Shown in pieces: positions 41,101-58,246 of a stretch of DNA of 64,000 nucleotides. Origin of the DNA: an uncultured Planctomycetia bacterium (GTDB lineage: Bacteria > Omnitrophota > Gorgyraeia > 2-02-FULL-51-18). The stretch's first letter is position 1. The number at the start of each line of letters is the position of its first letter. Under the pieces are notes generated by a model. That model was given only the letters and a program-made list of their open reading frames with translations. It was not told where the DNA came from and did no database searches. A program made the position numbers and the translations under genes. The DNA is taken from assembly GCA_964642015.1 (NCBI GenBank), contig CAZXLF010000002.1, positions 287,678 to 351,677 of the forward strand, given 5' to 3'.

Positions 41101-44100
41101 TTCAAACTCAGACGAAAGCCGATGGGACTGTGACGCTATTTGACAATAACAAACCCTCCGAAGTTTTGAGTGCTGCCGGAGCGATCCTGATCCAATACAG
41201 TTATGACGCTGACGGAAATCCTTCGAGAGTCTATCTCAAAAATGCGCGCGACACCTTGCCGGAGGAGGTTTTAAAAGCCAAGCAATCCATCGAGCAGCAG
41301 CGCGCCTCATCTCTTCAGGCTCTTGCCGCTCAGAAAAATCTCGCATACCAATCGATCCAGACCCAAGTACAAGCTCAGAGGCAAGCGCTGCAGCAAAATC
41401 TAACCGATCTTCAAAATCAATATAATCAAGTCGCCAATACGCCCGCCAGCGGCAAAAGCGCCAAAAATGCCAGAGGCAATGTTTTAAATCAGATCGGCAC
41501 TCAAATGGATCTGGTGCGTTCCGCTCTGGTCACTTCATATCAGCAGGAGGCCGATGCCTATGCCGCGCTTGATGCGCAGGTGAAAGCCTCATCCGACAAA
41601 ATAGAAGCAGATTCACAGAGCGCTTTCACGGCACTCGCCACCCAAGAGGCGAATTTAAAGCAGCAGATCCTTCAGCAGGAAGTTTCGCCGATCGTTTATG
41701 ATTATTATCGCCGTTTGTTGGGCCGTGACCCTGCGACTATGGAATACAACTCTTGGATTGGAAAGGTCGATTATTCCTCAGGCAACACATTTGTAGAAGT
41801 AAAGACCACTGACGGCTCGCTCCTTACCGCGGCACTCAAGTCATCGATCAATTCTTCGCAGGAGCTCATTGACCGGCAGACTTACGTTCAAAATATCAAG
41901 AATGCTGTTACTTCATCGATCAACAGTTATCTGGCGATGACTCAAGCCAATCAACAGGCATTTGCCGCTTCGCTGGGATTATCAACGAACGACGTAATCA
42001 ATCTCACGTCGAGTGACGCCCAGAAAATTTTGACATGGCTTAATTCACGTTCGTTACATTTCGGACAGTCGGCTTTCTTATCTCTCGAATCACTCCTTGA
42101 CCAGAAGGGCATCACATATGACCGCCAGGATCTCGCCAAAAAATGTATCCTGGTCGATGTTCTCTCGGGAGTGATCACACCTTTGGATGATGGGGACCTT
42201 GTGATCTCGGTATTTGCGTTGAATAAAGTCGCCTCACTGTATGGCACGGGGCTTACCGCCGCCAATGTCAGTTACGACGATCTTTTAAGTTTATATGTCT
42301 CTCAGCCGACGGCACGCACGATCGCGCACATCAACGGTGATCATTTTGTGGTCATTACGGCTGTAACCAAAGACAACGTTACCTATATTGATCCCGGCAA
42401 AGGGGTGGATAAGCAAAATGAATCCGTGACGGTCTCCAAGATGGATTTTATGAAAACATTCAAAGGCAACGTGACTTTAGACAATTCAAAAGCGCAAGCT
42501 ATTGCGAATATTTCTTCCAAAACTCTATCGGTCGAACAGACTAAGAAGATCCGTGGAGCGTTTTTACCGCTTCTTATTGCAGCGATCTTCAGCGCGATCT
42601 CGTCCATTGGAAGCGCGGTTTTCGCGGTCGCCAACGGTATAGGGACTATCATTGCCGGCGTCGGCACGATTGTAAGCGGCGCTTTGAATGGCATCGGCCA
42701 GGCACTTTCTATTTTGGGGCAGAACCTGTCCTATATCGGCCAGGCGGTTTTTAACGGGATCAAATTTGCCGCGAGTACGATCTATAACCTTGGAAGTCAG
42801 ATCTTCGCGTCTTTTGCGGGCCAGACGCTTTTCCCGAGCTTGACGCAAGTGAGCTTCGGCAGCCAGCTTTTCCAGACTGCCGTAAATATTGGCGTTAATT
42901 TCGCCACGCAAAAAGGCCTTGATGCATTGGGCATAAATCCTCAGATCGCAAGTCTGGCTTCCGCATTTGTATCGGGAGGAACCGTCGGAAGTTTCAATAG
43001 CGGATTTAACGCGGCAAATTTCATCCAAAATGGGATCAAGACGCTTGCTTTAGTCAGTTCTCAAACACTGCTTCAGCGCGTGGGCCTCGACGCAAATCTT
43101 TCTTCAACGCTTTCTTTGATCGTGAGCCCGCTGGTGAATGGCATTCAGTCAGGGAATATCGGCGGTAGCCTTGTCAAAATAATCCCTGACCTGACAAAGA
43201 ATCTCTCGCTTTACGGAGTGGATAAATTAGGCACAAGCTTGGGTCTGGATGCGGGGATCTCATCCTTGGCCGGAGTTTCGCTGGTCAATGGGCTAAACGC
43301 GGCGTTTGGGGGAGGAACGAACGTTGGGCAGAGTGTTATCCAATCGATCCAAAGCGGACTAACTCAAGGCATCGTTCAATATGGATTGAATTTTGTAGGA
43401 AACTCAAACCCTATATTTGGTTCTTTGTTGAGTAGTGATATGGCTAAAAATATCGAGCTTGCGATTGGACGCGACGGATTATTTCAAACTGTATTCAATG
43501 TTCTCCAAAATACCGTATTGAATGCGGTGAATGTTGTTGGGGGAACGGTCCAATCGATCTTTACAGGCATCACTGATTTTGGTTCGCTCATCCAGCAAAA
43601 AGGTCTGCCCGGAGCTTTGCAGTATTATCTGAATTCCGTATTTAGTCGGAATACTCAAGAGACGATCCTGGCAGAAGGCGGGATACAATCAATATTCAAC
43701 AACACCGCGAAGACCGCGACTACACTGCCCGACGGAACAGCGGGTCAAGAGCTTAAGATCAGCGACTCGGCGTCATTGCTGTTTGATAATGCAGGAAATC
43801 TGAAAGGTAAAAAAGAAAACGGTGTTATTGAGTTAGGAACTTTCGGATTGGACTCTACGGGCAAATTTGGCCTTACAGCCGGACAGGTGACAGCTGTGTT
43901 GGCGCCGGACCTTAATTTAAGCGCACAAGTAAATGGCGGACAACTACAAACCGCGAGCGTCAAAGGTTCGGATGGGACTTCTGTTGTGGATATAAATCCA
44001 GAAAACACTAATCAACCGATTTATATCGAAGGCCCACAAACACAAACCTCAAACGCATCCCAGTCGTTTGATTTTTGGGGGGCGGTGTTGAAGCTTGTTC

Positions 44101-45230
44101 CGTATGGACTTTCTTTATGGTTAGGGGATGCTTCGGTCCAAGCTGCCCAGCAGACAGCTAGCCCTAATACAACAATACAGTCGATACAAGATTCTACTCG
44201 ATTAGTTTATGCGTTAGCCAATGGCATAGCGAATCCTAATAGTGACGAAACAAAAGCCCCAGACTATATACAAAATCTGGAGCAAAATCTTAAAAACCAG
44301 GGTAATGGTCAGATATCAGATTCAGATTTGCTACCTATTCCTCTTTATCAACATTTATTTCAGTTTACACATATTAATCAGAGCATAGATGCAATTAAAT
44401 GGATTATGGAATCGCAGGACCCGACAGTCCATGGAACGCTTGTGAATCAAGCGTTTGATAATCTACACAACTTCTTTTGGAAGAACGGCCTAGACCCTTA
44501 TTATATGCAACGGCCAATTGTGGGTATGGGATATTCAGGCGGATTTATGCCGCTCGTGGAAGCAATAGCAGCGACAGGGGGTATTTATAATTTCAAATCT
44601 CTAGTCGCCTTAGGTGCAGCCACCATTAGTTTGAGTCAAGACTTGGCAGACGCTGTCGTCAAGACCATTCAATATATTGAACAGGTCCAGGTAAGCGATA
44701 TTGCAAAAAACTTTGGTTTAATATTCGGTTCCGCAAGCAACATCATTCAGCAATTTATTAACGATGTGCAAAATAATTTAATTGACCCAGCGTTTACTTT
44801 GCTGGAGAATCAACTTGAAAGTATCACTCGGCAGAGCGACCCTAATAACGTTGAAAATTTACCAGATCTTTCCAATACGAATGTCCAACAGATAGTGAAC
44901 GTTTGGGGTACAAAAGATATCCTAGCTCAGACAGGTATTGGGGGACAAAAAAGCGCACTATGCGGACTATCAGGACAAAAATTAATTAATGTCGAAATTG
45001 TTGGCGCGACGCATTTTGACTATATGTTGCGCGGTGCAAATGATCCAAATCTACCAGACACTTGGAACTATAATGTAAGCAATTTTGTGACGGCGTTAAT
45101 TCGGAACAGTGATAATTCTAGTGATTTAAACGGATTCTTAGCTCAACAACAGAGTATAAATGTGACTTTTTTTGATAGCACACGCCAAGTATGGGTTGTT
45201 AAACTATCTGGCTGGGAGAGTCATCAATGA
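35169..45230 (+). CDS. giant secreted multidomain protein (3353 aa). Domains in order: signal peptide, YD/Rhs-like beta repeats, two tandem LamG/ConA-like domains, Gln-rich coiled coil, DUF4214-like motif, C39-like peptidase-like domain, long Gly/Ala/Ser-rich hydrophobic segment, C-terminal GxSxG alpha/beta-hydrolase-like region
   Basis: A single uninterrupted 10,062-nt ORF. Signal peptide MMKIKTRLIEKLCLKSVAVSLILSFSFSQLVWA. Recurrent YxYDxxGN-type repeats (NYTYAFDASNNEI, NYTYDTDAAGNVI, QYSYDADGNPS). Duplicated ~160-aa modules FDG(T/S)SY(L/I)(S/A)VP..DWD(F/L)GTGDFT(V/I)D...WYH(F/V)AL(V/L)R(T/S)G(A/S)...DEFRISKG(I/L)ARWT(S/G)NFTP, LamG-like. YDYYRRLLGRDPATMEYNSWIGKV (DUF4214-like). HFVVITAV...YIDPGKG (C39 His motif). 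PIVGMGYSGGFMP...WGTKD...GATHFDYM (Ser-Asp-His order). Confidence 0.8.
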   Translation: MMKIKTRLIEKLCLKSVAVSLILSFSFSQLVWAVDVRQMILDAESSFDQDTRRSGNLTPTNLTTAQTQAQTTVDQQQALQDLQNTNFSLTTKNGDVLQYVGNVLNKVQRPDGTLLNNIQVDANGNITNANLKLSDGSIQIFQNGQVIGYGTPDGNTVVYSAGQIQQVISKTGIVTNYSYIKDSLGNVIETDLDNTSYTTKYDANNKLKEVYDKVAGSRTTYTNGVIQKTVKSDGSQILYNSAVQPNGDIIVTPPNSNSSTYTDTQGNIFTFISGNVSTIKLKDGSILDSIVWDASNAVQSANLTAADGTKYVYQNKQLTRSTDPTGVVTNYTYTSTNIVVASAGSTWVYDPNKNPISYTDLSGNTTTYLTSGAFKGLKDRDILSTGQTFVYEYSQNSSGVISVQKREVHLQTYNVTTYSGTALLASNNPYLLFDARFENDNSFDPKISASATGTGKSLAVNLVAGSTGSSFTFNGVVTALNVSVAKGTTYNVEIRWETGRIGIYVYPKGTTRPSTPQGIVTDRSWDPTFKFSGQNAYVGYTYDSATWPWSQRGAFSVVTTSNAQSYAYLPGTPAEKITLNLNGSYQAISLTTKQYLSGIYRTITFGWNASNSIWNTKVSDWNSSTNVTTIVSTGTVAQTLTSGTDYVFDLRIEGAYLNGYVYLKGQARPSTPTLSVSALSASTDYEAIVWGSASTKTELYKNLTAPTYSAAAFQAKPVTALIDTVKNLTITKPAAPSSNPTDYSSITYSSDSKIKQIVKTDNSKYIFQNGLLTQVLDPSGNPTNFNFTQSIFSNITGSEIVQNNLDSKYDGSGNLSQIKINDITIHYLPGSTQIDYIEKTDGTQLHNLVFDASGNIIGADITAPTGEIRSYQNGQLIDLTQTDNSQIFYANAKPLKIVTPDKLTYNFDYTTPNIVQAVLDPSIVPSDALTPVKMQYDTNFNLTKVIRQNNQILNYLNNSLTEIDAPSAAPQIFAYQKDANGNILSYTVTQGNIVTTYDPNNNPVSAVVNPTSDNPHTLAAAYQYGKIRQIKKDGVVTFNYTYAFDASNNEITQVDDLEENTFRTYQSGNLVTSLDRSTSLLSTYVYVGGQVSQVQVSRLGRNLHIYNYSYSGGMTVVTDDEGTIRTYDANKQLLYLEKNGQKFQYIYTTSTKTNPITIQTVLPVTTLSQVSQSTGSNSWQQWQVNSSEGSLGIASWGWVTYNATLSQASDLKIEFDSSNFSGNVPSGYQFNLDIAVDGVSKTQYWTPVVVAGWTANSLTLTGLSSGTHAVKITWLNDYYVANQYDANFKFRNLKMTQINTTTTTTSDPITQENLIEQKLSDGSVAHYSNGAISSITRPDGSVISDLTLDSNGQVTKGTVTLSNGIKKIFNGTSILEEIDPDGTHFYFSNNEISKVVDTLGKTFNYTYDTDAAGNVIDAWLDSGSGALLKYDPNGNLLGFKPNNLSPYINGQVSFSDSSSAQYAITRSATARLDAGLPVFGSGSAYFDGTSYLSVPHTGDWDFGTGDFTVDFQARFRDTTSTQALFSIGDYASNGLTLYYTNGNLNIHINSAAVSKSIAWTPVQNQWYHFALVRTGAAVKLFVNGTQAGTDLTNSSNISGSATGVYIGALYSGGTGNYLNGNIDEFRISKGIARWTSNFTPSTQAYTADSNAKLLLHFDGTEDKYFYKFNVQKDASGNLTGYSFDGAGGKMSYDAQGNFISTTLSSSDPGLTYFADSSLTKYTSMPFGNVHLDPTQSKLGSSSVLFDGSSYIAVPNSDDWDLGTGDFTIDSFVKFKSTAGTQWLAQIGNYSSHGVGLYFVSNTIYAHVTSLTYTLSAAWTPSVNTWYHVALLRSGSALNIYINGVQLPGTSNSTNVTGVTEGVGVGGSSIMNSFNGWMDEFRISKGLARWTGNFTPPTQPDVADSYTKLLMHFEDQVSADLSGISQSMSVVKSSTITLPYKLVLTNFLPDVTAWYGDAQTALLDNQTVIANEYSSDGTLQTQTKADGTVTLFDNNKPSEVLSAAGAILIQYSYDADGNPSRVYLKNARDTLPEEVLKAKQSIEQQRASSLQALAAQKNLAYQSIQTQVQAQRQALQQNLTDLQNQYNQVANTPASGKSAKNARGNVLNQIGTQMDLVRSALVTSYQQEADAYAALDAQVKASSDKIEADSQSAFTALATQEANLKQQILQQEVSPIVYDYYRRLLGRDPATMEYNSWIGKVDYSSGNTFVEVKTTDGSLLTAALKSSINSSQELIDRQTYVQNIKNAVTSSINSYLAMTQANQQAFAASLGLSTNDVINLTSSDAQKILTWLNSRSLHFGQSAFLSLESLLDQKGITYDRQDLAKKCILVDVLSGVITPLDDGDLVISVFALNKVASLYGTGLTAANVSYDDLLSLYVSQPTARTIAHINGDHFVVITAVTKDNVTYIDPGKGVDKQNESVTVSKMDFMKTFKGNVTLDNSKAQAIANISSKTLSVEQTKKIRGAFLPLLIAAIFSAISSIGSAVFAVANGIGTIIAGVGTIVSGALNGIGQALSILGQNLSYIGQAVFNGIKFAASTIYNLGSQIFASFAGQTLFPSLTQVSFGSQLFQTAVNIGVNFATQKGLDALGINPQIASLASAFVSGGTVGSFNSGFNAANFIQNGIKTLALVSSQTLLQRVGLDANLSSTLSLIVSPLVNGIQSGNIGGSLVKIIPDLTKNLSLYGVDKLGTSLGLDAGISSLAGVSLVNGLNAAFGGGTNVGQSVIQSIQSGLTQGIVQYGLNFVGNSNPIFGSLLSSDMAKNIELAIGRDGLFQTVFNVLQNTVLNAVNVVGGTVQSIFTGITDFGSLIQQKGLPGALQYYLNSVFSRNTQETILAEGGIQSIFNNTAKTATTLPDGTAGQELKISDSASLLFDNAGNLKGKKENGVIELGTFGLDSTGKFGLTAGQVTAVLAPDLNLSAQVNGGQLQTASVKGSDGTSVVDINPENTNQPIYIEGPQTQTSNASQSFDFWGAVLKLVPYGLSLWLGDASVQAAQQTASPNTTIQSIQDSTRLVYALANGIANPNSDETKAPDYIQNLEQNLKNQGNGQISDSDLLPIPLYQHLFQFTHINQSIDAIKWIMESQDPTVHGTLVNQAFDNLHNFFWKNGLDPYYMQRPIVGMGYSGGFMPLVEAIAATGGIYNFKSLVALGAATISLSQDLADAVVKTIQYIEQVQVSDIAKNFGLIFGSASNIIQQFINDVQNNLIDPAFTLLENQLESITRQSDPNNVENLPDLSNTNVQQIVNVWGTKDILAQTGIGGQKSALCGLSGQKLINVEIVGATHFDYMLRGANDPNLPDTWNYNVSNFVTALIRNSDNSSDLNGFLAQQQSINVTFFDSTRQVWVVKLSGWESHQ

Positions 45231-46003
45231 AAAAACCGATAGTATTAACAGCCCTTTCTTTAATGACAACCTTTATCTTTAGTCATCATCTTTGTGCTGA
45301 TAATAAGAATCAGAATGGTAAACCGATCTATACCGTTGTTGGCGGACAAGGTTTAACACCTTTTCCGAATAATGAAAATACGAGGAGAATTATTAAAAGA
45401 ACTGACTTAATTCGAGAAGGCAATAAATTGGCCCATTCAGCTTTATATGATCAGGCTATAATAAAATTCCAAGAAGCAATGGATCCTTCTTTGTTTAATG
45501 ATCCAAGAGATGAGGCAGAAGGGCGTTATGGAATAATGAAGGCACGTATACGTCAGAGCAGATTTAAAGATGCCCTTAATGAGAATCAATGGTTTATCCA
45601 AAAATTTGGTCTTAATGAAAGCAATAAAGAAACGCGCCAGGAAATATTGGCTCTAATTGATTTTCAGACGACAGGCACAGCCAAATTTATTTATAACCAT
45701 GTTGAGAGTTTAAAGAATAAATATTCCGATCAACTTCCGCCTCGAAATTTTGTTGGCAACGGGCCTATAGTTTCGTCGGAAATTATTCATCTTTACGATT
45801 ACATTAACGATTCAGATAAGGCAATCGCGTTTCTAAATGAGTTTTTGACTTATCTAAAAAAACGCAGCAATGCTAGCAATTCCGACAAATCAGAAATTGC
45901 CGAATACGAAGCTGCCAAGCAAGCCTTCAAAGAGGATAAGCAGACTGGCCTAAAAGGCCATCTTCAAAAAGTTATAGCAACTTCAGAGTATATTGGGTGG
46001 TGA
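45227..46003 (+). CDS. hypothetical secreted protein translationally coupled to the giant gene (candidate immunity/accessory protein)
   Basis: Its ATG overlaps the giant-gene TGA (ATGA). N-terminal signal peptide MKKPIVLTALSLMTTFIFSHHLCA. 258 aa, helical-looking, no enzymatic motifs. Confidence 0.55.
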   Translation: MKKPIVLTALSLMTTFIFSHHLCADNKNQNGKPIYTVVGGQGLTPFPNNENTRRIIKRTDLIREGNKLAHSALYDQAIIKFQEAMDPSLFNDPRDEAEGRYGIMKARIRQSRFKDALNENQWFIQKFGLNESNKETRQEILALIDFQTTGTAKFIYNHVESLKNKYSDQLPPRNFVGNGPIVSSEIIHLYDYINDSDKAIAFLNEFLTYLKKRSNASNSDKSEIAEYEAAKQAFKEDKQTGLKGHLQKVIATSEYIGW

Positions 46004-46642: not shown

Positions 46643-48028
46643 ATGATTATGCCCAAGCGTCTGGCGATCTTATTTTTCTTATTAATTTCCTCAGCCAATG
46701 TTTATGCCGACTCATCTGCACCCACCGCTTTGGACGCTTACGTCCGCACACCCGACGAACATTTCAATTATTCCTTGCAGAAGACCGTGCGTGGAAATGG
46801 CTACACGACCTATGTGATAAATCTGACGTCCCAGCAATGGTTGACCAAAGAACAGGTCGATCGTCCGATCTGGAGACATTGGCTTACGATCATCGAACCG
46901 GACAAAGTACGCAGTAATAAAGCACTGCTCCTTATCTACAGCGGTATTTACGGCGCCTTGGAAAAAGGAATGATGGAGAAAATAGCGCAGGATACCGGTT
47001 CGGTCGTGGCATGTGTCGAGCCGCTTCCGGAGATGCCGCTTACTTTTACCGACAAAAATGGAAAGAGCGGCCAATTGGCTGAAGATACGCTTATCGCCGA
47101 CAGTTGGGCACGATATTTGAGGACCGGTGACACAAAGCGCCTGGTGCGATTACCGATCGTAAAAAGCGTTGTCAGCGCAATGGACGCGGTGAGCCGGTTT
47201 TGCGCCAATGACGCCGATCATAAGATAACCGTCGATCAATTTGTGCTTGCGGGCCAATCCAAGCGCGGATGGGCCGTGTGGCTTGCGGCATCGGTGGATA
47301 AGAGGGTGGTCGCGGTTATTCCCATGGTCATCGATATATTGAATGTCGTACCCTCATTGAAGCATCAGTACGAATCTTACGGACACTGGGAAGAAGCGAT
47401 GGGAGACTATGAGAGCGCGGGAGTTTTAGGTCAAATAAACGCGAAGCAATTCGCGGAATTAATAAAGATCGAAGACCCTTATTCCTATAAAGAGCGTTTG
47501 ACAATGCCGAAATATATCATTAATTCAGCTGACGATGAATTTTTCCCTCCGGATTCTTCGCGATTTTACTTTGATGACCTTTTGGGTGAAAAATATTTGA
47601 GGTATGTGCCGAATAGCAGCCACCACTTGTATGGAACAGATGTGATGCGGTGTGTTGAGTCGTTTTATTGGTCGATTCTTGAAGGGAAGGTGAGACCGCG
47701 GTTTTCGTGGAAGATCCAAGCCGATGGATCCATACGACTTCTAGTGATAGATAAACCTTTGAAGGTGAAGCTCTGGCAGGCCACCAACCCTGAAGGGCGC
47801 GATTTCCGGCTTCACGTCGTCGGAAACGCTTGGACGAGCAAAGAGATCTCTGAAACGGGACCGGGCGTTTATATCGGCAGTGTGCCTGCACCCGCGAAAG
47901 GTTGGACAGCATTTTTTTTGGAGCTGACCTATAATAATGGAGATGGTTCGACTCCGCTTAAATTCACCACTTCTGTGAGCGTGGTGCCGGATAGAATGCC
48001 GTTTGAGTATCGCGAGAATTCACAATAA
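46643..48028 (+). CDS. secreted alpha/beta-hydrolase-like protein resembling the PhoPQ-activated pathogenicity-related (PqaA-type) family
   Basis: Signal peptide MIMPKRLAILFFLLISSANVYA. N-terminal ALDAYVRTPDEHFNYSL...YVINLTSQQWLT...WRHWLTIIEP resembles my recollection of that family's conserved N-region. GQSKRGW is a nucleophile-elbow-like motif. Assignment from memory only. Confidence 0.4.
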   Translation: MIMPKRLAILFFLLISSANVYADSSAPTALDAYVRTPDEHFNYSLQKTVRGNGYTTYVINLTSQQWLTKEQVDRPIWRHWLTIIEPDKVRSNKALLLIYSGIYGALEKGMMEKIAQDTGSVVACVEPLPEMPLTFTDKNGKSGQLAEDTLIADSWARYLRTGDTKRLVRLPIVKSVVSAMDAVSRFCANDADHKITVDQFVLAGQSKRGWAVWLAASVDKRVVAVIPMVIDILNVVPSLKHQYESYGHWEEAMGDYESAGVLGQINAKQFAELIKIEDPYSYKERLTMPKYIINSADDEFFPPDSSRFYFDDLLGEKYLRYVPNSSHHLYGTDVMRCVESFYWSILEGKVRPRFSWKIQADGSIRLLVIDKPLKVKLWQATNPEGRDFRLHVVGNAWTSKEISETGPGVYIGSVPAPAKGWTAFFLELTYNNGDGSTPLKFTTSVSVVPDRMPFEYRENSQ

Positions 48029-48279: not shown

Positions 48280-48489
48280 TTGAAAGACGCGGAAGGCGTC
48301 TTTACGGTCCGAGAACTCGCGAAGTACCTGCGGATGAAGCCGCTGACGATCTACAAGCATGCTTCATCGGGCAAACTGCCCGGTTTTAAGGTCGGATCGC
48401 ATTGGCGCTTCAAGAAACAGACGATTGATAGCTGGATCGAGTCGCAAGAGCAATCTAATATCAATCATAAAACTTTAATAAATGCATAA
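48280..48489 (+). CDS. excisionase-family (MerR-like) helix-turn-helix DNA-binding protein; TTG start
   Basis: FTVRELAKYLRMKPLTIYKHASSGKLPGFKVGSHWRFKKQTIDSWI is the characteristic HTH_17/excisionase-family motif. AAGGAGG RBS 8 nt upstream of the TTG. Confidence 0.65.
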   Translation: MKDAEGVFTVRELAKYLRMKPLTIYKHASSGKLPGFKVGSHWRFKKQTIDSWIESQEQSNINHKTLINA

Positions 48490-48566: not shown

Positions 48567-49316
48567 ATGTTAGAAGGTTTAATAGGTAGGACGGCGATAG
48601 TTACGGGCGGGAGCCGTGGCATAGGCAAAGCTATCGTCTTGGATTTAGCCCGAAACAAAGTAAATGTGGCATTTAATTATGTTGCCAGCAAAGACGCTGC
48701 CGATGATGTTGTCGCTGAGGTTGAGAAATTGGGAGCAAAGACTCTTGCTGTTAAGGCGGACGTGAAAAACCCTGATCAAGCCAAATTATTTGTGGATGAA
48801 GCAAAAAAGAAATTCGGAAAGATAGATTTTTTAGTTAATAACGCGGGAATTTTAAAGGATAAAACCTTGATGTTTATGTCTGACGCGGATTGGAAGGATG
48901 TGATTGAAACAAACCTATATGGATCCTTTGTGTTAACGCGTCTTATGATCATGAGCTTTCTCAAGCAAAATAGCGGAGGCATTGTAAATATTTCTTCGAC
49001 TGCCGGTTTGATTGGAAATGCCGGCCAGGTGAATTACAGCGCTAGCAAAGCCGGGCTTATTGGTTTTACGAAGGCGCTTGCAAAAGAAGTGGCTTCTTAT
49101 GGGGTGAGAGTAAATGCGGTGGCGCCAGGATTTATTGAGACAGATATGGTTAAAACTATTCCCGAAAATAAGATGCAAGAAGCTGTAAAAACAATTCCCA
49201 TGCAGCGTCTTGGAAAGCCGGACGAAGTTGCTAAAGTTGTTACGTTTTTACTTTCCGAAGAGTCTGCGTACATCACGGGCCAGGTACTGCCTATTGATGG
49301 AGGGCTGGCCATTTGA
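48567..49316 (+). CDS. fabG: 3-oxoacyl-[acyl-carrier-protein] reductase (SDR family)
   Basis: TGGSRGIGKAI (NAD(P) binding), NNAG, catalytic S...YSASKAG, PGFIETDM. 249 aa. Confidence 0.85.
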   Translation: MLEGLIGRTAIVTGGSRGIGKAIVLDLARNKVNVAFNYVASKDAADDVVAEVEKLGAKTLAVKADVKNPDQAKLFVDEAKKKFGKIDFLVNNAGILKDKTLMFMSDADWKDVIETNLYGSFVLTRLMIMSFLKQNSGGIVNISSTAGLIGNAGQVNYSASKAGLIGFTKALAKEVASYGVRVNAVAPGFIETDMVKTIPENKMQEAVKTIPMQRLGKPDEVAKVVTFLLSEESAYITGQVLPIDGGLAI

Positions 49317-50551
49317 AGACCGACGATCAGAGGATAGTCATAACTGGAATAGGCGTTGTTTCACCGATCGGGATCGGAAAAGATGCTTTTTGGCAAGGCC
49401 TAAAAGAGGGCAGATCAGGAATAAAGCCGGTCACCCTTTTTGATACGTCAACAACACGGTCGAAGCTGGCCGGAGAAATAACCGATTTTAAACCGGAAGA
49501 AATTCTCGGCCCTAAAGGGCTAAGAAATTTGGACCGCACTACTAAACTGGCTTTATGCGCGGCTCAATTAGCATTGGACGACGCGAATTTTAAAATAACT
49601 GAAGAAAATTCAAATGATGTTGGTGTGGTATTAGGCTCGACGATGGGGAGCGTGTGGAGCATTAGTGAATATGATAAACAAACGTTAAAAGAGGGCCCCA
49701 GATCTGTTAATCCGGCCTTGTTTGCGAATACTGTTATCAATTCACCGGCGAGTCAGATATCGATTCGGTTTGGAATCCAAGGATTCAATTCAACTATTTC
49801 GACAGGATTTTCATCCGCATTTGATGCGCTGAAATACGCGTCAGATTTCATTAAATGGGGAAAAGCAAGCGCTGTATTGGTTGGAAGCGCAGAGGAGCTT
49901 TGCGAACAATTCTTCAAGGGTTTTTACAAATTAGGCATTCTTTCTAAGTCTCAAGAAAACAGTGAAGAAATGTTACGTCCTTTCGATAGGAGACGTAATG
50001 GCATGATTTTGGGGGAAGGTGCCGCAGTGTTTCTCCTAGAATCTTTACAACATGCCAGGCAAAGAAATGCGCCTATTTATGCGGAAATAGGATCTATTGC
50101 ATCTACCTTTAATAGACGATCCATGAATAGATATAACTTAAAGGCAACTGGTGAGATCGACAGTATGAAGAAAACATTATCTTTAGCAGAGTTAGATGCT
50201 AAGCATATTGATTGTATCGTGGCTTCGGCCAATTCTACCGTAAAAGGAGATTTAACCGAGAGTATAGCCATAACCCAAGTTTTTGATCAAGACAAACCGT
50301 CGGTCACAGCCTGTAAGTCGATGTTTGGTGAGACCTTTAGCGCGGCTGGCGCCATGAATCTTGCGGCGGGAATATTTATTCTAAAAAATCAATTTATTCC
50401 CCCAACGCTTAATGTAGAGCAAAAAGATAATGAATGTGGCGTAGAGTGTGTCAAAAATACCGGAGTATCCAAAAAAGTTGATCATATTTTGATCAATTCA
50501 TTCGGAGCGTCGGGACAAAATTCAAGCCTAGCTTTGGTAAGGAGTAGCTGA
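49313..50551 (+). CDS. beta-ketoacyl synthase-like protein lacking the catalytic Cys-His-His triad (chain-length-factor/KS-beta-like)
   Basis: Thiolase-fold KAS homolog, 412 aa. The active-site Cys position reads ISTGFSSAF rather than TAC(S/A)S. The His motifs read ASANSTVKGD and KSMFGETFSAAG, with no His in either. Confidence 0.75.
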   Translation: MKTDDQRIVITGIGVVSPIGIGKDAFWQGLKEGRSGIKPVTLFDTSTTRSKLAGEITDFKPEEILGPKGLRNLDRTTKLALCAAQLALDDANFKITEENSNDVGVVLGSTMGSVWSISEYDKQTLKEGPRSVNPALFANTVINSPASQISIRFGIQGFNSTISTGFSSAFDALKYASDFIKWGKASAVLVGSAEELCEQFFKGFYKLGILSKSQENSEEMLRPFDRRRNGMILGEGAAVFLLESLQHARQRNAPIYAEIGSIASTFNRRSMNRYNLKATGEIDSMKKTLSLAELDAKHIDCIVASANSTVKGDLTESIAITQVFDQDKPSVTACKSMFGETFSAAGAMNLAAGIFILKNQFIPPTLNVEQKDNECGVECVKNTGVSKKVDHILINSFGASGQNSSLALVRSS

Positions 50552-51759
50552 TGGAGCGTGTGGTTATTACAGGATTGGGTGTTATTACATCCATTGGCAT
50601 TGGTAAAGATGCTTTTTGGTCCAATCTGGTTCGAGGTAAGTCAGGAATAAATCCCGTTTCTCTAATTGATACCACTGATCATAAGAATAAAAACGGAGGA
50701 GAAATTAGAAATTTTAATCCTGATGATTTTATAGATTCCAAGAAACGAGAAATGTATGGTCGAGGGTCTCAGCTTGCCATTGCTGCCGCTAAACTTGCTC
50801 TAAAGGAAGCTAATATGAATTTTAAAAAAATAAATTCTGAAAATTCAGCCGTTATTATTGGCACTACTATGGCGAATATACGAGAGTTGGAAGAAGCAAA
50901 TAAGGTCTGGCTTACAAGCGGTGAAGATAAAGTAAATGCTGCCCTTATTACTAAATATCCAGGCAGCTCCCTTGCTTTTAACGTGGCTTACGAGTTAGGT
51001 TTAAAATCTCTTTGTTATTGTATCCCTACCGCTTGTGCGGCCGGCAATTATTCTATAGGTTATGGGTTTGATCTCATTCGGCACGGCGAGATTGATTTTG
51101 CATTGGTTGGCGGCGCAGATCCTTTTTCCAGAATAAGTTTTACAGGATTCGGAAATCTTTTTGCGATGGCGCCTGAAAAGTGTCAGCCTTTCGATAAAAA
51201 TAGAAAAGGTATGATGGTTGGCGAAGGCGGCGGAATGCTTGTTATTGAAAGTTTGAAACATGCTCAATTGCGAAATGCGCCTATTTATGCGGAAATATTA
51301 GGATATGGCTTAAGTTGCGACGCCAAACATATGACGCTTCCAAGTGTTGAAGGTTTGGGCAGTGTGATGAGGAAAGCTGTACAAGAGACTGGCATCAAAC
51401 AAGAAGATATTGACTATATAAGTGCCCATGGCACAGGTACAAAGACCAATGATTCCACGGAGGCGCAGGCGATCAATAGGGTTTTTCCCAAAGAGAAGAA
51501 AAAGATACCCGTGAGCTCTATAAAATCCATGCTTGGTCACACGATGGGCGCTGCGAGCGCTATCGAAGCTATTACTTGTGTGTTAGCGATCAAAAACTCT
51601 ATTATTCCACCGACTATTAATTTTGAAGAACCAGACAGTGAATGCGATATCGATTGTGTTCCGAATAGAGCTAGAAAACAGAACGTGAGAATAGCTCTCA
51701 ACAATTCTTTTGCTTTTGGCGGCAATAATGCATGCTTGGTGCTCAGCCGATTTAATTGA
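50551..51759 (+). CDS. beta-ketoacyl-[ACP] synthase (FabF/KS-alpha-like, catalytically intact)
   Basis: IPTACAAGNYSIGYG (Cys), ISAHGTGTKTND (His), KSMLGHTMGAASAIEAI (His), C-terminal NSFAFGGNNACLVL. Start overlaps the preceding KS-like stop. Confidence 0.85.
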   Translation: MERVVITGLGVITSIGIGKDAFWSNLVRGKSGINPVSLIDTTDHKNKNGGEIRNFNPDDFIDSKKREMYGRGSQLAIAAAKLALKEANMNFKKINSENSAVIIGTTMANIRELEEANKVWLTSGEDKVNAALITKYPGSSLAFNVAYELGLKSLCYCIPTACAAGNYSIGYGFDLIRHGEIDFALVGGADPFSRISFTGFGNLFAMAPEKCQPFDKNRKGMMVGEGGGMLVIESLKHAQLRNAPIYAEILGYGLSCDAKHMTLPSVEGLGSVMRKAVQETGIKQEDIDYISAHGTGTKTNDSTEAQAINRVFPKEKKKIPVSSIKSMLGHTMGAASAIEAITCVLAIKNSIIPPTINFEEPDSECDIDCVPNRARKQNVRIALNNSFAFGGNNACLVLSRFN

Positions 51760-51886: not shown

Positions 51887-52144
51887 ATGCCGAAAAGCGC
51901 TAATGCAGCCCCAATAGAAAGCGATATAAGAAATCTTATCGCAAAAATTATCGAAGTAGAACCGGAGAAAATAGGTTCCGAAACGGGTTTTGTCGAAGAG
52001 CTCGGCGCAGATTCAATGATGGCGCTTGAGATCATGGCTTCTCTCGAAAAACAATTCAACATTACGATTCCCGAAGAAGATTTGCCGAAAATTACAAATT
52101 TAAGGCAAACCATTTATCTCGTTAAGTCGCTTATGAAAAAATGA
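51887..52144 (+). CDS. acyl carrier protein
   Basis: 85 aa with the 4'-phosphopantetheine attachment motif EELGADSMMALE. GGAGA RBS before the ATG at 51887, which is an internal Met of the 51857 ORF. Confidence 0.8.
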   Translation: MPKSANAAPIESDIRNLIAKIIEVEPEKIGSETGFVEELGADSMMALEIMASLEKQFNITIPEEDLPKITNLRQTIYLVKSLMKK

Positions 52145-52159
52145 TCATTGGAATAGAAG

Positions 52160-53626
52160 ATGTCAAATAAATATGATGTTGCAATTATTGGAGCGGGCAT
52201 TTCTGGACTGATAGCAGGAAATTACTTGGCACAGTCTGGCTTAAAAGTATTCATAGCGGAACAACATTACGCTGTTGGCGGATGTTGCTCATATTTTAAG
52301 CGAAATGGCTACACATTTGAATGTGGCGCCCATTCTCTTGGGAGCTGTCGAAATCCTGATGGATATCTATATAAAATTTTTAATGAACTTGGTATATATG
52401 ATGTTTTGGACATAAAGCGAGCGGAATGCTCCGACACATTAATATCAAATAAATACACGATTAATTTTTTAGATAACGCCTACCAAATGGCAAATAGTTT
52501 GGCTTATGAATTTGAACAATACAAAGGCCAGATTCACAGTTTTTTTGAGGAAGTGGAGGGATTTGGCGCAAAATCATTTCTTCGGTATTATGCGCGTTAT
52601 AAAAACATGACATTTGATATGTTTCTTTCTAAATATTTTGATAATGTCGAAATTAGAGAAATTTTAAGTATTTTCTTAGGAAATTTAGGTGTTGCTTCAA
52701 ACCAAATCAGTACCATAACAGCGCTTGCGTTATATAGAGAATTCGTGATGGATGGCGGATATTATGTTGAGGGCGGTATGAAAAAATTAGGTGATGTTCT
52801 AAAATGGAATTTTCAAAAAAATGGCGGCGTGGTTTCTTTAAAGGATAAAACAATCAAAATCATTTTAAAAAATGGGTATGCCTCAGGACTTGATACTGAA
52901 AGAAGCGGTATCATTGAATCAAAATATGTTATTTCGACAGCCGGCATCAAGCAAACATTCTTGGAGCTTATTAACGAAGAATTGATGCCGCTCGACTTTA
53001 TTTGCAAAGTTAAAAATTCAAAGCCGTCGGTATCCGCGCTGATACTTTATTTGGGTTTAAAAGGACGCAGCATTAAAGATGAGAAGTGGGGAAGGACAGT
53101 CTGGTACATACCAAATCTCAATCCAAACGAAGTGTATAGGAAAGCATTTGATGGTCAATGTGATGAAAATATCGAGGCGATGCTCATGGGGTTTCCTTCC
53201 AAGTATGATGAATCGTTAGTCCCACCGAATTGTGAAAGTTTAATGTGTATATTAAGTGCACCATATAAAAGTAACGATTTTTGGTCTACAAACAAAGCAA
53301 GATATAGAGAGGCCATAATCAATAGAATATCAACGCTCATCCCCAATATTAAAGATAGGATTGAGGTGTGCGAATTAGCAACACCTCCAACTATTGTTAA
53401 GTTCACGCTGAATGATGCAGGCGCAATTTATGGATTAGCATCAACTTCGGATCAGATAGATATTGACTATATGCCATTTAAAACACCTATTAAAAATCTA
53501 TTTTTATCGAGTCATTGGACAACCCAGGGTTATGGGCAAGCCGGGGTACCTGTCGTTGCACTAGCAGCCAAACAGGTGGCGTTTGCTATTCAAAAGAAAG
53601 AAAATCAGATCAAAGTAGTGATTTAA
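52160..53626 (+). CDS. FAD-dependent oxidoreductase of the phytoene desaturase (CrtI/CrtD-like) family
   Basis: N-terminal dinucleotide-binding fold KYDVAIIGAGISGLIAGNYLAQSGLKVFIAEQHYAVGGCCSYF...GAHSL. Length 488 aa, typical for the family. Confidence 0.75.
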   Translation: MSNKYDVAIIGAGISGLIAGNYLAQSGLKVFIAEQHYAVGGCCSYFKRNGYTFECGAHSLGSCRNPDGYLYKIFNELGIYDVLDIKRAECSDTLISNKYTINFLDNAYQMANSLAYEFEQYKGQIHSFFEEVEGFGAKSFLRYYARYKNMTFDMFLSKYFDNVEIREILSIFLGNLGVASNQISTITALALYREFVMDGGYYVEGGMKKLGDVLKWNFQKNGGVVSLKDKTIKIILKNGYASGLDTERSGIIESKYVISTAGIKQTFLELINEELMPLDFICKVKNSKPSVSALILYLGLKGRSIKDEKWGRTVWYIPNLNPNEVYRKAFDGQCDENIEAMLMGFPSKYDESLVPPNCESLMCILSAPYKSNDFWSTNKARYREAIINRISTLIPNIKDRIEVCELATPPTIVKFTLNDAGAIYGLASTSDQIDIDYMPFKTPIKNLFLSSHWTTQGYGQAGVPVVALAAKQVAFAIQKKENQIKVVI

Positions 53627-53766: not shown

Positions 53767-54843
53767 ATGACTACTAAACTTTCGACCGCACATTCAGAAA
53801 AAGATATAGCAATATACACATCAGCAAGGGGAAACTTGACGAAGCAGAAAATAGTTAATTTTTGTGATTTTTTAAGGGATCATTACCCTTCGGCAAAGAA
53901 ACGCAAGGGACATGACATTGAAAACTATAAATTTTTTTCAAGAGAATTAGACACACTTCTTTTTGAGTGCGAAAAAGCCATTTCCGAAACAAACAATAAG
54001 GTTCTACAACGAGAACATAAAGAATTTTTTAGAGCCGCTTTAAATTCATGGCTTACTAAGAATGACTTTGTGAGGCGATGCATGGAAAAACCGAGAGGTT
54101 ATCCTGGGGACTATTTAATGATGGAACACGGTTATCAGGATGAGGTTGATGGAAATAAATTGAACGCCAATTTTTTTGATAGATATTTCTTTGACAAATA
54201 TCAATCAATTATCTTTCGAAAGGAGAAGCTGAAACAAATATTAGTGACATTAATTAAAGATTCAAATAAATTATCAAACAAAGGGATGCAGCCAGTCGTC
54301 AAAATTATGACACTTGGTGGTGGGCCTGCGAGGGAATGGTTCGAACTCGATAAAGAGATGCGAAATCAGAAAATCAAAGCCGTTCATTTAACGTATCTCG
54401 ATCAAGATGAAGAAGCCATGGACTTTGCTAAGAAACGATTAAATTCAAACCGATTGATTAAAAGACGATGCTTTGTGCGAACAAGCCTGATTGAATTTTC
54501 AAAGGCTGCCCCTTTAACGCTCAATGTAGATGACTCGTTTGATGTTATCTACGGCTTGGGTATTGCTGATTATTTTCATGATCAATTCCTTTCGGCTATC
54601 ATTGCAAAAGCATGGTTGCTCCTAAAAAAAGGCGGTAAATTTATTCTAACTCATAAAGACAGTAAATCTTTTCCAATGGAACCGGCTGATTGGTTGTGTG
54701 ATTGGAGTTTTGTGCACAGATCGAAAGAACAATTTGAAGCATTAATTAAATCAGCTTTAGGCGCACCGAGCTCTAAGTTTAATTTAGAAATAAGCTGGGA
54801 GTCATCTGGACAGATTCTTTTTGGAATAGTCAGCAAGAATTAA
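53767..54843 (+). CDS. putative class I SAM-dependent methyltransferase with an N-terminal extension
   Basis: Motif I VKIMTLGGGPA, motif II-like FDVIYGLGIADYF, motif III-like LLKKGGKFILT in the C-terminal 200 aa. The N-terminal 150 aa are unassigned. Confidence 0.5.
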   Translation: MTTKLSTAHSEKDIAIYTSARGNLTKQKIVNFCDFLRDHYPSAKKRKGHDIENYKFFSRELDTLLFECEKAISETNNKVLQREHKEFFRAALNSWLTKNDFVRRCMEKPRGYPGDYLMMEHGYQDEVDGNKLNANFFDRYFFDKYQSIIFRKEKLKQILVTLIKDSNKLSNKGMQPVVKIMTLGGGPAREWFELDKEMRNQKIKAVHLTYLDQDEEAMDFAKKRLNSNRLIKRRCFVRTSLIEFSKAAPLTLNVDDSFDVIYGLGIADYFHDQFLSAIIAKAWLLLKKGGKFILTHKDSKSFPMEPADWLCDWSFVHRSKEQFEALIKSALGAPSSKFNLEISWESSGQILFGIVSKN

Positions 54844-54859: not shown

Positions 54860-56998
54860 ATGACAATATTTATTTATTCATTACCTCAGCTATTAGGCTC
54901 TTTCATTGCCGCTATCCTTGGTTTGTTTGTGCTATCCAGAAATTGGAAGCGTCCTCTCAATCGCACATTTTCAAGTTTCGGGTTTCTTGCATCGCTATGG
55001 CTCGGGTCCGCTTCGATAGCTTATTCACTTGGATCTGAGCAAAAGATGATAATATTTAAGTTGATGCAAGTTAGCTACTCTGCGGTTATATGCATGGTCA
55101 TCCCTTATCTGAGACTAACTACTCTTATTACGCAGTCTAAGAGCCTCCAGCGGTGGGCAAATCTCTCAACTTTCATTGCCATCTTTTTTGTAGCCACAGT
55201 ATGGTTAACAAATTGGTTTATCAAAGACCTATATTATTTTCACTTTGGTTTGTATCCCAATGTTGGCTGGATTCATCCATTTTTTCTAGCATGGCTCTTC
55301 GTGTCAATGACACTTATTCATCTGATTTTGTTCCAGGGATCCAGGGACGAGAAACGCGATAGCAGAGATAGAAACCAAGCTAAATATATATGGTTGGCTT
55401 TTATTGCTGTTACGCCTGTGATAGTAGATTTTATCCCTAATTATGGAATCGACACATATCCAGCTGGTTACCTATTCGTTCTAGTGTTTGGGGCAGTAAG
55501 TGCTTACGCGATTGTTCGCCATCAATTGATGGATATTGAAGTAGTTATAAAACGAACAGCCGTATTTGCCGGCCTCTTTGCATTTGTTTATGGAACATTT
55601 ACCGTTGTGACAATATTAGGCCAGGAATTTTTCAAGAGCACTTTAGGTTGGAACCAATGGATTGCAACGATCCCAACCGTTTTAATTATTACATTTTCGT
55701 TAAGGCCGCTTGAGACCTTTCTTACAAATTTTACGGAAAGATGGCTATTCCAAAAAAAATACGATTATCGAGAGCTGCTTAGAACCTTTACGAACGAAAT
55801 CCTCACGGTTTTAGATCTAAGCAAATTAACAGAACAGACGGTCGCCGGTCTTATCAAGATCATCAAATTAGAATCCGCGGCGGTGCTTTTGCTCGATAAA
55901 GATATTAAAACGTACAAAATGGTCGCCGGGAGCGGCGTTAAAGAAAAAGAGATCGTTTTTAAGGAAAATGATTTGATCGTCTCTTACCTTAAACAGACCA
56001 ACCAACATATTTTAAAAGACAAGAGTGTCGACAAAATGGAAGGCGATGGGGAGCTTAAGGATGCCTTTAAAAAACTAAATGCCCGGATCTGTCTGCCTAT
56101 CGAGCTTCACGATAATCTGATAGGCATCCTGTCGTTAGGCATGAAGAAATCAGGCGAAGATTTCACTCAGGAAGATATCGATATCCTTAATACGCTGGTC
56201 CGCACGGAAGCGATCGCTATTTCAAACGCCCAGCTTTTCGATGAGCTGTCCAAAACGCAGGCCGAGGCGGCTCAGCGTGAAAAGATGGCGGTTATCGGGA
56301 CTCTGGCGGCAGGGATCAATCACGAGATCTGCAATCCGCTTGGGATCGTACGAGGACAGTGCGAGATGTTTCTTTTAAACCAGCGAGATGGATTTTATGA
56401 CGGAAAATCTACCGAGGACATTTTGAAAATATCCAGTGATATCATGAATAAAGTCATAAAAGAAACTGATAGGGCGACCGGCATCACAAAGAAATTATCG
56501 AGTTTTGCGAAGCCGTCAAAGCGTTCCGATCTCGAAGAAGTGCAGGTTGAAAAAGAGGTGGATGAGGTGGTCGGGCTTATTGGACATGACCTGAAGCTGA
56601 ATAACATCGACATCCAAAAAGATTTTCCCAATAATTTTCCGATCATACTGGCTGATAAGAAACAGATCCAGGAAGTGCTTTTCAATATTATCCGCAACGC
56701 TGCTCAGGCCATGGATAAAAAAAGCGGTAAGATAGTCGTGTCAGGTTTTGCGGATAACGGAAACGCCGTGGTACGCATCGCGGACAACGGCAGCGGGATC
56801 CCGAAAGACAAGATAGGGCAGATATTCAACCCATTTTATACGACCAAAGCTCCGGGTAAGGGCACAGGATTGGGTCTTTTTATCGTCAAACAGGTTGTCG
56901 AGAAGAACAGAGGGACAATATCTCTAGATAGCGAGGTAGGTGTCGGTACGACGTTTACGCTGAGATTTCCTGCAGCGGTATCACTTGTCGCGGCATAA
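54860..56998 (+). CDS. membrane sensor histidine kinase (multi-TM sensor, GAF-like linker, HisKA, HATPase_c)
   Basis: About 8 TM helices in the first 290 aa. H-box AAGINHEICNPLGIV. N/G boxes NIIRNAAQAM, DNGSGIPKD, GLGLFIVKQVV. Confidence 0.85.
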   Translation: MTIFIYSLPQLLGSFIAAILGLFVLSRNWKRPLNRTFSSFGFLASLWLGSASIAYSLGSEQKMIIFKLMQVSYSAVICMVIPYLRLTTLITQSKSLQRWANLSTFIAIFFVATVWLTNWFIKDLYYFHFGLYPNVGWIHPFFLAWLFVSMTLIHLILFQGSRDEKRDSRDRNQAKYIWLAFIAVTPVIVDFIPNYGIDTYPAGYLFVLVFGAVSAYAIVRHQLMDIEVVIKRTAVFAGLFAFVYGTFTVVTILGQEFFKSTLGWNQWIATIPTVLIITFSLRPLETFLTNFTERWLFQKKYDYRELLRTFTNEILTVLDLSKLTEQTVAGLIKIIKLESAAVLLLDKDIKTYKMVAGSGVKEKEIVFKENDLIVSYLKQTNQHILKDKSVDKMEGDGELKDAFKKLNARICLPIELHDNLIGILSLGMKKSGEDFTQEDIDILNTLVRTEAIAISNAQLFDELSKTQAEAAQREKMAVIGTLAAGINHEICNPLGIVRGQCEMFLLNQRDGFYDGKSTEDILKISSDIMNKVIKETDRATGITKKLSSFAKPSKRSDLEEVQVEKEVDEVVGLIGHDLKLNNIDIQKDFPNNFPIILADKKQIQEVLFNIIRNAAQAMDKKSGKIVVSGFADNGNAVVRIADNGSGIPKDKIGQIFNPFYTTKAPGKGTGLGLFIVKQVVEKNRGTISLDSEVGVGTTFTLRFPAAVSLVAA

Positions 56999-57006
56999 TC
57001 ATTTTT

Positions 57007-57372
57007 ATGACCAAGATACTGACCATTGATGACGAAACCGAATTCACGAGTTTGATCCAGAGCTATTTTGGAGCAAGAGGCTATGAGGTGCTGATCGCCA
57101 ACGACGGCAACGCCGGCGTGACGCTTGCGAAAGCAGAAAATCCCGACGTTTGCCTTATCGACCTTAAAATGCCGGGTCTTCATGGGGATGAAGTGCTTCG
57201 GGAGGTGCTTCTTCATAAACCTAATACCAAATGCATCATGATCACGGCCTCAGAAGGCGAGGGAAAGACTAGAGAGAAGCTGATCTCGATGGGCGCGTAT
57301 ACTTGCTTTGACAAACCGATCACGTCTTTGAGAAATTTGGAATCAAAGATCAAAGAGGCATTGGATTCATGA
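57007..57372 (+). CDS. single-domain response regulator (REC only)
   Basis: ILTIDDE, phospho-acceptor context CLIDLKMPG, conserved T/K positions. 121 aa. Confidence 0.8.
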   Translation: MTKILTIDDETEFTSLIQSYFGARGYEVLIANDGNAGVTLAKAENPDVCLIDLKMPGLHGDEVLREVLLHKPNTKCIMITASEGEGKTREKLISMGAYTCFDKPITSLRNLESKIKEALDS

Positions 57373-57758: not shown

Positions 57759-57815
57759 CAAATGTCAAAATCCGAATGACAAAACAAATTCAAATATTCA
57801 AAAGACAAGACAGGA

Positions 57816-58175: not shown

Positions 58176-58246
58176 TTTTAATGTTGGGATCTTGCACGTG
58201 TTTTGTCATTTGTGCTTTGGTATTTGAGTTTCGGTAAATCGGAGTT

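Follow-up and report, generated by a model that had tools for sequence, protein, structure and literature searches.

A degenerate ketosynthase overlapping an intact ketosynthase gene in an Omnitrophota fatty-acid-type cluster: a predicted chain-length-factor-like subunit

Gene content of the cluster and the former active site

The stretch of DNA analysed here, hereafter the window, comprises 64,000 nucleotides of contig CAZXLF010000002.1 (positions 287,678 to 351,677; assembly GCA_964642015.1) and holds a fatty-acid-type gene cluster (Table 1), in which a protein with the fold of a β-ketoacyl-acyl carrier protein (ACP) synthase, or ketosynthase (KS), is encoded immediately upstream of a second, intact KS. 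The upstream protein, the degenerate KS, has lost the complete Cys-His-His catalytic triad and is the subject of this report. Its gene overlaps those on either side. The stop codon TGA of the FabG-type reductase (49314-49316) overlaps the TTG start of the degenerate KS (49313-49315), with GGAGGG upstream, and the stop codon TGA of the degenerate KS (50549-50551) shares one nucleotide with the ATG of the intact KS (50551-50553; TGATG), with AGGAG located 6 nt upstream.

Both Pfam ketoacyl-synthase domains span the full length of the degenerate KS (PF00109, E = 4e-43; PF02801, E = 1.3e-20), and the protein scores under all NCBIfam FabF equivalog cutoffs. The AlphaFold monomer model reaches a pLDDT of 83.8 and a pTM of 0.88, with residues 111-142 below 50, and the nearest fold detected by Foldseek, using a PDB library that predates entry 9S5H, is B. 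subtilis FabF (TM 0.90). Based on the full-length domain matches together with the pTM and TM values, the degenerate KS hence retains a complete two-domain FabF/thiolase fold.

The catalytic positions were placed by HMMER alignment to P. aeruginosa FabF (8cn8) and by MAFFT alignment to E. coli FabF, and the two placements agree, the C/H/H/K/F anchors of the E. coli sequence aligning as expected. The position of the catalytic cysteine (163/164) is occupied by Phe166, that of the first histidine by Ser305 and that of the second by Glu340. The active-site lysine, Lys335, is retained, and the gating phenylalanine of the C-terminal GFGG loop is replaced by Ala399 (GASG). A preliminary description of this sequence had quoted the motifs ISTGFSSAF, SANSTVKGD and KSMFGETFSAAG, all of which are present in the translation of 49313-50551, and had read from them a substitution of all three catalytic residues in a KS that keeps its fold and its glycine-rich C-terminus and is translationally coupled to an intact KS. 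The coupling is borne out by the overlapping stop and start codons, as are the exchanges of Cys for Phe and of the second His for Glu; at the first His, for which Ser or Asn had been offered, the residue is Ser, the Asn of the motif aligning with a Thr two residues further. The fold is indeed kept, the glycine-rich C-terminus only in part. No register shift that would restore Cys or His in the degenerate KS was found in these alignments to FabF references, and the identical alignment yields C-H-H for the downstream KS, with C-H-H-K-F at its catalytic positions.

Table 1 Features of the window, with the KS cluster in the middle rows
Feature	Length (aa)	Position	Strand	Assignment or remark
Giant surface- or toxin-like protein	3353	35169-45230	+	RHS-repeat/Laminin_G_3/Peptidase_C39
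Open reading frame	258	45227-46003		No family match
PF10142 (PhoPQ-activated pathogenicity-related) protein		46643-48028	+	E = 2e-113, full length
HTH_17-type small DNA-binding protein	69	48280-48489	+	Pfam PF12728 on identical Logan contig; first gene of the cluster
FabG-type 3-oxoacyl-ACP reductase	249	48567-49316	+	TIGR01830, E = 3.7e-91, above curated cutoff; Pfam adh_short_C2
Degenerate KS	412	49313-50551	+	TTG start; FabF fold; predicted chain-length-factor-like partner
Helix-loop-helix motif of degenerate KS, residues 111-142		49643-49738	+	Holds Phe137, Thr140, Val141 (nt 49721-49735)
Phe166 of degenerate KS		49808-49810	+	Position of catalytic Cys
Ser305 of degenerate KS		50225-50227	+	Position of first His
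Glu340 of degenerate KS		50330-50332	+	Position of second His
Intact KS	402	50551-51759	+	Cys162, His293, His330, gating Phe389; predicted catalytic subunit
Dedicated ACP	85	51887-52144	+	PF00550, E = 1.9e-14
Phytoene-desaturase-family FAD-dependent oxidoreductase	488	52160-53626	+	PF01593 and crtI family matches under equivalog cutoffs
358-aa protein	358	53767-54843	+	Weak class I methyltransferase Pfam matches, all below gathering score
GAF histidine kinase, two response regulators, small PF05635 protein, GAF-HD protein		54860-59473	+	Pfam
PF05635 (23S rRNA intervening-sequence protein) gene		57816-58175	+	Inserted within the kinase/regulator module
Two tandem paralogous histidine kinases		59886-63130	-	Each with N-terminal 7TM (HisKA_7TM) sensor region

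Relationship to the anammox pair and conservation across Omnitrophota

Compared with all PDB sequences, the degenerate KS is closest to amxFabFmut of the anammox bacterium Brocadia fulgida (9s5h_C; E = 3e-101, 342 bits, 43% identity), as opposed to about 230 bits for ordinary FabFs and 149 bits for the actinorhodin chain-length factor (CLF; 1tqy_B). The intact KS correspondingly matches amxFabF2 best (9s5h_B; 493 bits, 56% identity), followed by the ishigamide protein Iga11 (351 bits). amxFabFmut, which comprises the Kuste3606/Broful02170 orthologues, and amxFabF2 belong to anammox 'Cluster I' (PDB 9S5H/9S5I). They are inactive singly and co-purify, and jointly decarboxylate malonyl-ACP and form acetoacetyl-ACP; in the crystal they constitute a KS/CLF-like heterodimer with a single catalytic tunnel, partly lined by Phe135, Thr138 and Val139 from a helix-loop-helix of amxFabFmut that is disordered without the partner (Granatino et al., bioRxiv 10.64898/2026.05.19.726425). 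The pair prefers C6-C8 probes, mutation of Val139, or of Phe135 and Val139 jointly, alters the lengths of the acyl probes that react, and the nearest fold of amxFabFmut is likewise B. subtilis FabF (10.64898/2026.05.19.726425). The mechanism considered here is hence not new: the degenerate KS is an orthologue-level relative of the anammox dead ketosynthase worked out in 2026, and the question of heterodimer and tunnel has in effect already been addressed experimentally on its anammox orthologues.

The likeness extends beyond overall similarity. Both degenerate proteins have a full FabF fold, a lost triad, Glu at the second His and the retained lysine, and both are encoded in a cluster with an adjoining intact KS, a dedicated ACP and a phytoene-desaturase-like gene. 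They differ at the Cys position (Phe in the window, Val/Thr in anammox amxFabFmut, with Val in Brocadia), at the first His (Ser as opposed to Asn) and at the gating position (Ala/Pro in Omnitrophota, Arg in amxFabFmut). The gene order also differs, the window having the degenerate KS before the intact one and FabG in the operon, whereas Brocadia has ACP, FabZ, KS, degenerate KS, the phytoene-desaturase-like 'PDH' and a radical S-adenosylmethionine (radical-SAM) gene. The flavoprotein of the window is 31% identical to the Brocadia Cluster I 'PDH' over its full length (E = 8e-66), as compared to E = 6e-15 for the best solved desaturase. For the ACP, identity to amxACP of Brocadia is 40%, the alignment having a two-residue gap on the side of the window protein, and in the PDB ranking the margin over other ACPs is slight. 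Of the genes by which anammox Cluster I is defined, the window thus holds the ACP, the KS pair and the PDH homologue and lacks FabZ and the B12 radical-SAM gene; no FabZ homologue was detected by tblastn in the whole 64 kb.

Phenylalanine at the Cys position is itself already on record. The active-site residues of Kuste2805 from Kuenenia stuttgartiensis were tabulated as Phe163/Asn298/Asn300/Lys328/Glu333/Gln342 (Rattray et al. 2009, PMC2649909, Table 2) and, compared by these tabulated residues, agree with the consensus of the Omnitrophota proteins (F / N or S / N / K / E / Q or N) at a larger number of positions than do those of Kuste3606. Kuste2805 differs in keeping the gating Phe392 and in having Cys at position 302. 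A homologue search seeded with amxFabFmut for paralogues of the Kuste2805 type returned only anammox Kuste3606 orthologues (at least 64% identity).

The distribution of the degenerate KS was surveyed using one genome per species, which gave 410 matching loci, the best 80 of which were examined. Almost all of these 80 are labelled Omnitrophota, the complete genome of Velamenicoccus archaeovorus among them, and several are labelled 'uncultured Planctomycetia' yet display Velamenicoccus synteny. Together with the window and three identical Logan contigs they make up the 84 loci compared, corresponding to 81 non-redundant ones. A degenerate KS, with intact reading frame and at full length, is present in 84 of 84 loci, with the partner KS within 10 kb in 59. 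No orthologue of the B12 radical-SAM protein of Cluster I was found in the window or in the 80 loci, radical-SAM superfamily matches (21-26% identity) occurring away from the cluster in five loci only, and where the Omnitrophota loci have a FabZ, its nearest relatives are the solved amxFabZ structures (46-52% identity to the Brocadia gene).

The substitutions are conserved throughout. Among the 81 loci the Cys position is Phe in 76, Tyr in three, Leu in one and Met in one; the first-His position is Asn in 34, Ser in 29, Thr in eight, Gly in six, Ala in two, and Cys and Asp in one each; and the second-His position is Glu in 71 and Asp in ten. The active-site lysine is kept in all 81, and the gating position is mostly Pro. 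The Cys position is accordingly bulky and hydrophobic and the first-His position free, in agreement with the 120 closest homologues (54-100% identity), in all of which Phe replaces the Cys, while the first His is exchanged for a small or polar residue and the second for Glu or Asp. Glutamine at the Cys position is known as a rule only for the aromatic type II polyketide synthase (PKS) CLFs, or KS-β subunits. The preliminary description had deemed Phe unusual at this site, which is correct against such textbook CLFs; within the family, in contrast, it is the consensus.

Neighbour-joining analysis of 50 sequences (a distance method, with one anammox degenerate KS and no PKS CLFs included) unites the degenerate KSs, amxFabFmut among them, in 100/100 bootstraps and separates them from the partner KSs, among which amxFabF2 is placed. 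The loss of the triad would therefore be older than the split between the Omnitrophota and anammox proteins, unless the pair was transferred as a unit.

Mapping of the preprint residue numbers onto the window, using the DFPNTV and PTACAAG motifs as anchors, equates Phe137, Thr140 and Val141 with Phe135, Thr138 and Val139 of amxFabFmut, and F-T-V is found in 84 of 84 loci. The tunnel and phosphopantetheine-binding residues named in the preprint are similarly kept in the intact KS, i.e. an Ala, a Phe, a Met, the gating Phe and two phosphopantetheine-binding Thr. The two subunits differ in where they are conserved. The helix-loop-helix (111-142) has an entropy of 0.69 bits in the degenerate KS versus 2.00 bits in the partner KS, in which it is the least conserved part, whereas the degenerate KS is the more variable protein at the first-His motif (1.15 versus 0.68 bits), the second-His motif (0.77 versus 0.13 bits) and the C-terminal gating region (1.64 versus 1.03 bits). 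The most conserved segments of the degenerate KS include the helix-loop-helix, residues 143-160 and the Cys motif (161-172). Overall, the two proteins evolve at equal rate, with a mean pairwise identity of 0.588 for each and a correlation of r 0.74 across 49 species, and 57 positions are near-invariant in the degenerate family. Judged from the alignments, this swapped conservation is the pattern expected for a dimer with one working pocket, where each helix-loop-helix would cover the pocket of the other subunit.

Natural fusions are compatible with such pairing. A search of 1.84 billion clustered proteins gave, among its best 150 representatives, 89 degenerate KSs of a single domain, with Phe at the Cys position in 34, and 46 two-domain proteins. 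In 42 of the latter an intact KS precedes a degenerate domain; the N-terminal halves match the intact KS of the window best and the C-terminal halves the degenerate KS, the latter often with F-T-V. These KS-CLF didomain proteins from metagenomes (P0365, P0371, P0372, P0375 and about 40 more; about 810-830 aa) are single chains with very diverse dead-site residues (R, G, A, Q, E, V and others), identity being only about 30-35%.

Proposed role and alternative explanations

Based on these comparisons, we consider it likely that the degenerate KS serves as a non-catalytic, CLF-like subunit in an obligate heterodimer, the other half of which is the intact KS. The structural or chain-length-gating partner that the preliminary description suggested is supported by placement in the amxFabFmut clade, by the kept tunnel residues and by the one-active-site pattern of conservation. 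The dimer, the role in the tunnel and a possible priming through decarboxylation of malonyl-ACP are inferred from the structures and assays of the anammox pair. In this arrangement the pair would have one active site, formed by Cys162, His293 and His330 of the intact KS, which would accept acyl groups from the dedicated ACP and condense them with malonyl units on that ACP. The helix-loop-helix of the degenerate subunit, with Phe137, Thr140 and Val141, would form part of the wall of the KS acyl tunnel and so help to set the chain lengths that fit, while Phe166 would fill the former pocket, which is probably held together by pairing of Glu340 with Lys335. The β-keto product would then be reduced by FabG, and the phytoene-desaturase-like flavoprotein may act on the chain afterwards.

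Several observations weigh against this proposal. Elongation by the anammox pair was not observed (10.64898/2026.05.19.726425), and neither a dehydratase nor a recognised enoyl reductase was found in the window cluster. About 13 Omnitrophota loci (L045, L049, L050, L056, L058, L063, L068, L070-L072, L075, L081 and L083) lack both an intact KS and an ACP in the 10 kb around the degenerate KS. FabG follows it there, joined by FabZ except in L083, and in L056 the trio is flanked by a riboflavin operon and DNA ligase; in these genomes the partner KS, unless absent, is assumed to be encoded elsewhere, and adjacency is hence not universal. Heterodimerisation of the anammox pair is explained in the preprint by opposite surface charge on the helix-loop-helix and the contact helix of the two subunits (10.64898/2026.05.19.726425); tallying the charged residues of these elements, a method too crude to weigh either way, revealed no clear asymmetry, not even between the two Brocadia proteins. 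Finally, Asn307, Thr309, Asp313, Glu316, Lys335 and Glu/Asp340 are nearly invariant in the vicinity of the old active site, most simply for structural reasons.

The same residues could alternatively equip the degenerate KS with a new activity based on Glu340, Lys335, Asp313, Glu316 and Asn307, for instance as a priming malonyl-ACP decarboxylase (as proposed for Gln-type KS-β), in acyl-ACP binding or transfer, or as the coupling enzyme that Rattray et al. proposed for Kuste3606 (PMC2649909). Such a role agrees with the invariably acidic character of the second-His position, which is Glu in Brocadia too, with the invariance of Lys335 and near-invariance of Asn307 and Thr309, and with the need for both anammox subunits in malonyl-ACP decarboxylation. 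We nevertheless consider it improbable, as Phe is unable to serve as a nucleophile or to provide an oxyanion-hole amide in the manner of Cys or Gln, the first-His position varies without constraint, and Pro/Ala take the place of the gating loop. Moreover, the tunnel of the anammox dead subunit has no access to a catalytic triad, with no ACP docking predicted at its entrance (10.64898/2026.05.19.726425), and constraint is strongest in the helix-loop-helix, which would serve the partner, rather than in the old site. Simple decay of a functionless duplicate of the neighbouring KS would account for the loss of all three catalytic residues. The intact full-length frame in every locus, the rate shared with the live KS, the near-invariant positions and the confidently predicted fold make it a reading that we give virtually no weight, and the conservation data already refute it.

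Two further explanations concern the cluster as a whole. A true ladderane pathway, as an antiSMASH-style call would have it, with an Omnitrophota host making ladderane lipids, could build on the genes common to anammox Cluster I (ACP, KS pair and PDH, with an amxFabZ-like FabZ in most other Omnitrophota), and antiSMASH has reported 'ladderane' biosynthetic gene clusters in Omnitrophota metagenome-assembled genomes, without interpretation. It is very unlikely, given that the B12 radical-SAM orthologue is missing from the window and the 80 loci, that ladderanes are so far known from anammox Planctomycetota only, and that the accessory genes (acyl reductase, nitroreductase, Shikimate_DH-like) vary among Omnitrophota lineages. 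The layout of KS, degenerate KS, ACP and ketoreductase also recalls an aromatic or polyene type II PKS of the actinorhodin, ishigamide or aryl-polyene kind, and Iga11 is the second-best solved relative of the live KS. The actinorhodin CLF (1TQY chain B) is likewise an inactive KS-fold partner that defines a tunnel at the dimer interface, although it differs in its proposed decarboxylase role and in working with cyclases and aromatases on unreduced poly-β-keto chains. Iga11-Iga12 and ApeO-ApeC (aryl polyene) are KS/CLF heterodimers that act with a stand-alone ketoreductase (and dehydratase) and ACP on reduced chains, Iga12 expelling its product via Asp113. The window protein is set apart from these by Phe instead of Gln at the Cys position, by 149 bits to the actinorhodin CLF as opposed to 342 to amxFabFmut, by the position of Iga12 and ApeC outside its 60 best PDB matches, and by its two domains at full length, ApeC being a half-size CLF with one thiolase domain (PMC8358021). 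As no cyclase, aromatase or half-size ApeC-like CLF genes were found in the window and the locus is set among housekeeping genes, we rate a KS-β of such a PKS as slightly less probable still than a ladderane pathway.

Returning to the CLF-like subunit, its wider setting is of relevance for ladderane biosynthesis. The cluster is not mentioned in the main Omnitrophota genomics paper, and the core of Cluster I (the KS pair, ACP, amxFabZ-like dehydratase and often the phytoene-desaturase-like gene) occurs in 80 Omnitrophota-dominated genomes, the best 80 of 410. That this core occurs so widely in a phylum without known ladderane production argues that it builds an ordinary acyl precursor, with the anammox-specific chemistry located elsewhere. 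Because the core is shared and the radical-SAM gene is absent from all 80 genomes, fewer gene candidates are left for cyclobutane formation. It is possible, though in our estimate somewhat short of probable, that the KS pair, FabG, the amxFabZ-like dehydratase and the ACP constitute an ancient Omnitrophota-wide fatty-acid-type synthase, and that Cluster I represents this module with a B12 radical-SAM protein added. If so, the core of Cluster I would not be ladderane-specific and would supply an acyl-ACP precursor of an ordinary kind, possibly of short or medium chain length or unsaturated, and the radical-SAM step would hold the chemistry peculiar to ladderanes; given the frequent setting among housekeeping genes, the pair may even be the main elongating KS of the phylum. 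As a speculation, the phytoene-desaturase-like flavoprotein could be the missing enoyl reductase or a desaturase of such a synthase. The Omnitrophota loci provide non-anammox homologues for studying a CLF inside a fatty-acid-type synthase, and the swapped conservation represents a simple sequence signature that could flag other KS dimers with a single active site.

Variation of the locus and neighbouring genes

FabG is present in 76 of the 84 loci, and in 51, as determined by tblastn with the Velamenicoccus HTH_17 protein as query, an HTH_17 gene lies directly upstream of the degenerate KS or FabG. The usual order in other loci is HTH_17, degenerate KS, FabG, ACP, FabZ and KS. In the lineage that comprises the window, L004 and L005, FabG comes first and FabZ is absent. 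Variable extras follow the KS, namely a NAD_binding_4-type acyl reductase, Shikimate_DH-like and nitroreductase-family proteins, the flavoprotein and, in some loci, a third KS. This third KS, found in L007 (14024-15352) and also in L024, L027, L032, L039, L040, L042 and L053, is intact but very divergent, about 27% identical to the partner KS and on a long tree branch of its own.

In a Velamenicoccus subclade (L019, 6332-9928, and 14 similar loci), malate/lactate dehydrogenase and dihydrolipoyl dehydrogenase genes are located directly upstream of the cluster, in a block that also encodes a LipB/LplA-type lipoyl ligase and a lipoyl-domain protein. This synteny, in conjunction with the C6-C8 probe preference of the anammox pair, raises the idea of a C8-limited synthase feeding lipoate synthesis, which we keep as a lead only. 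The idea is weakened by the confinement of the synteny to these 15 loci and by the 38 kb that separate Lpd and LipA of the window (9034-11347) from the cluster. The core chromosome genes elsewhere in the window are, besides these two, SecY, Adk, RpoA, GAPDH, PGK, TIM, ThiG, Asd and TruA. RpoA shares 90-92% identity with proteins named Candidatus Omnitrophica/Omnitrophota, and on this basis the window belongs to an Omnitrophota genome.

Downstream of the flavoprotein, the 358-aa protein has no NCBIfam or PDB match and a single-sequence AlphaFold model with a pLDDT of 37.6; by tblastn its gene is found, among the 84 loci, only in the window and the three identical Logan contigs. The histidine kinase and response regulator genes that follow are more widely shared. 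Behind the cluster, the order of histidine kinase, two response regulators and (GAF-HD) recurs in about 15 loci. The module, with single-domain response regulators and an HD-GYP-like GAF-HD protein, keeps this position in distant Omnitrophota (L005, L011, L014, L020, L021, L030, L033, L035, L039, L046 and L057), which suggests a regulatory link to the KS cluster or a very stable synteny. The window differs by a PF05635 gene inserted within this module.

Upstream, the 3353-aa open reading frame was considered as a nonribosomal peptide synthetase/PKS of a hybrid cluster and rejected, its domains being those of a giant RHS-repeat protein; it ends about 3.3 kb ahead of the fatty-acid-type cluster. 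The open reading frame of 258 aa precedes the PF10142 gene in the interval between. At the other end of the window, on the opposite strand, the two paralogous histidine kinases with 7TM sensor regions lie in tandem.

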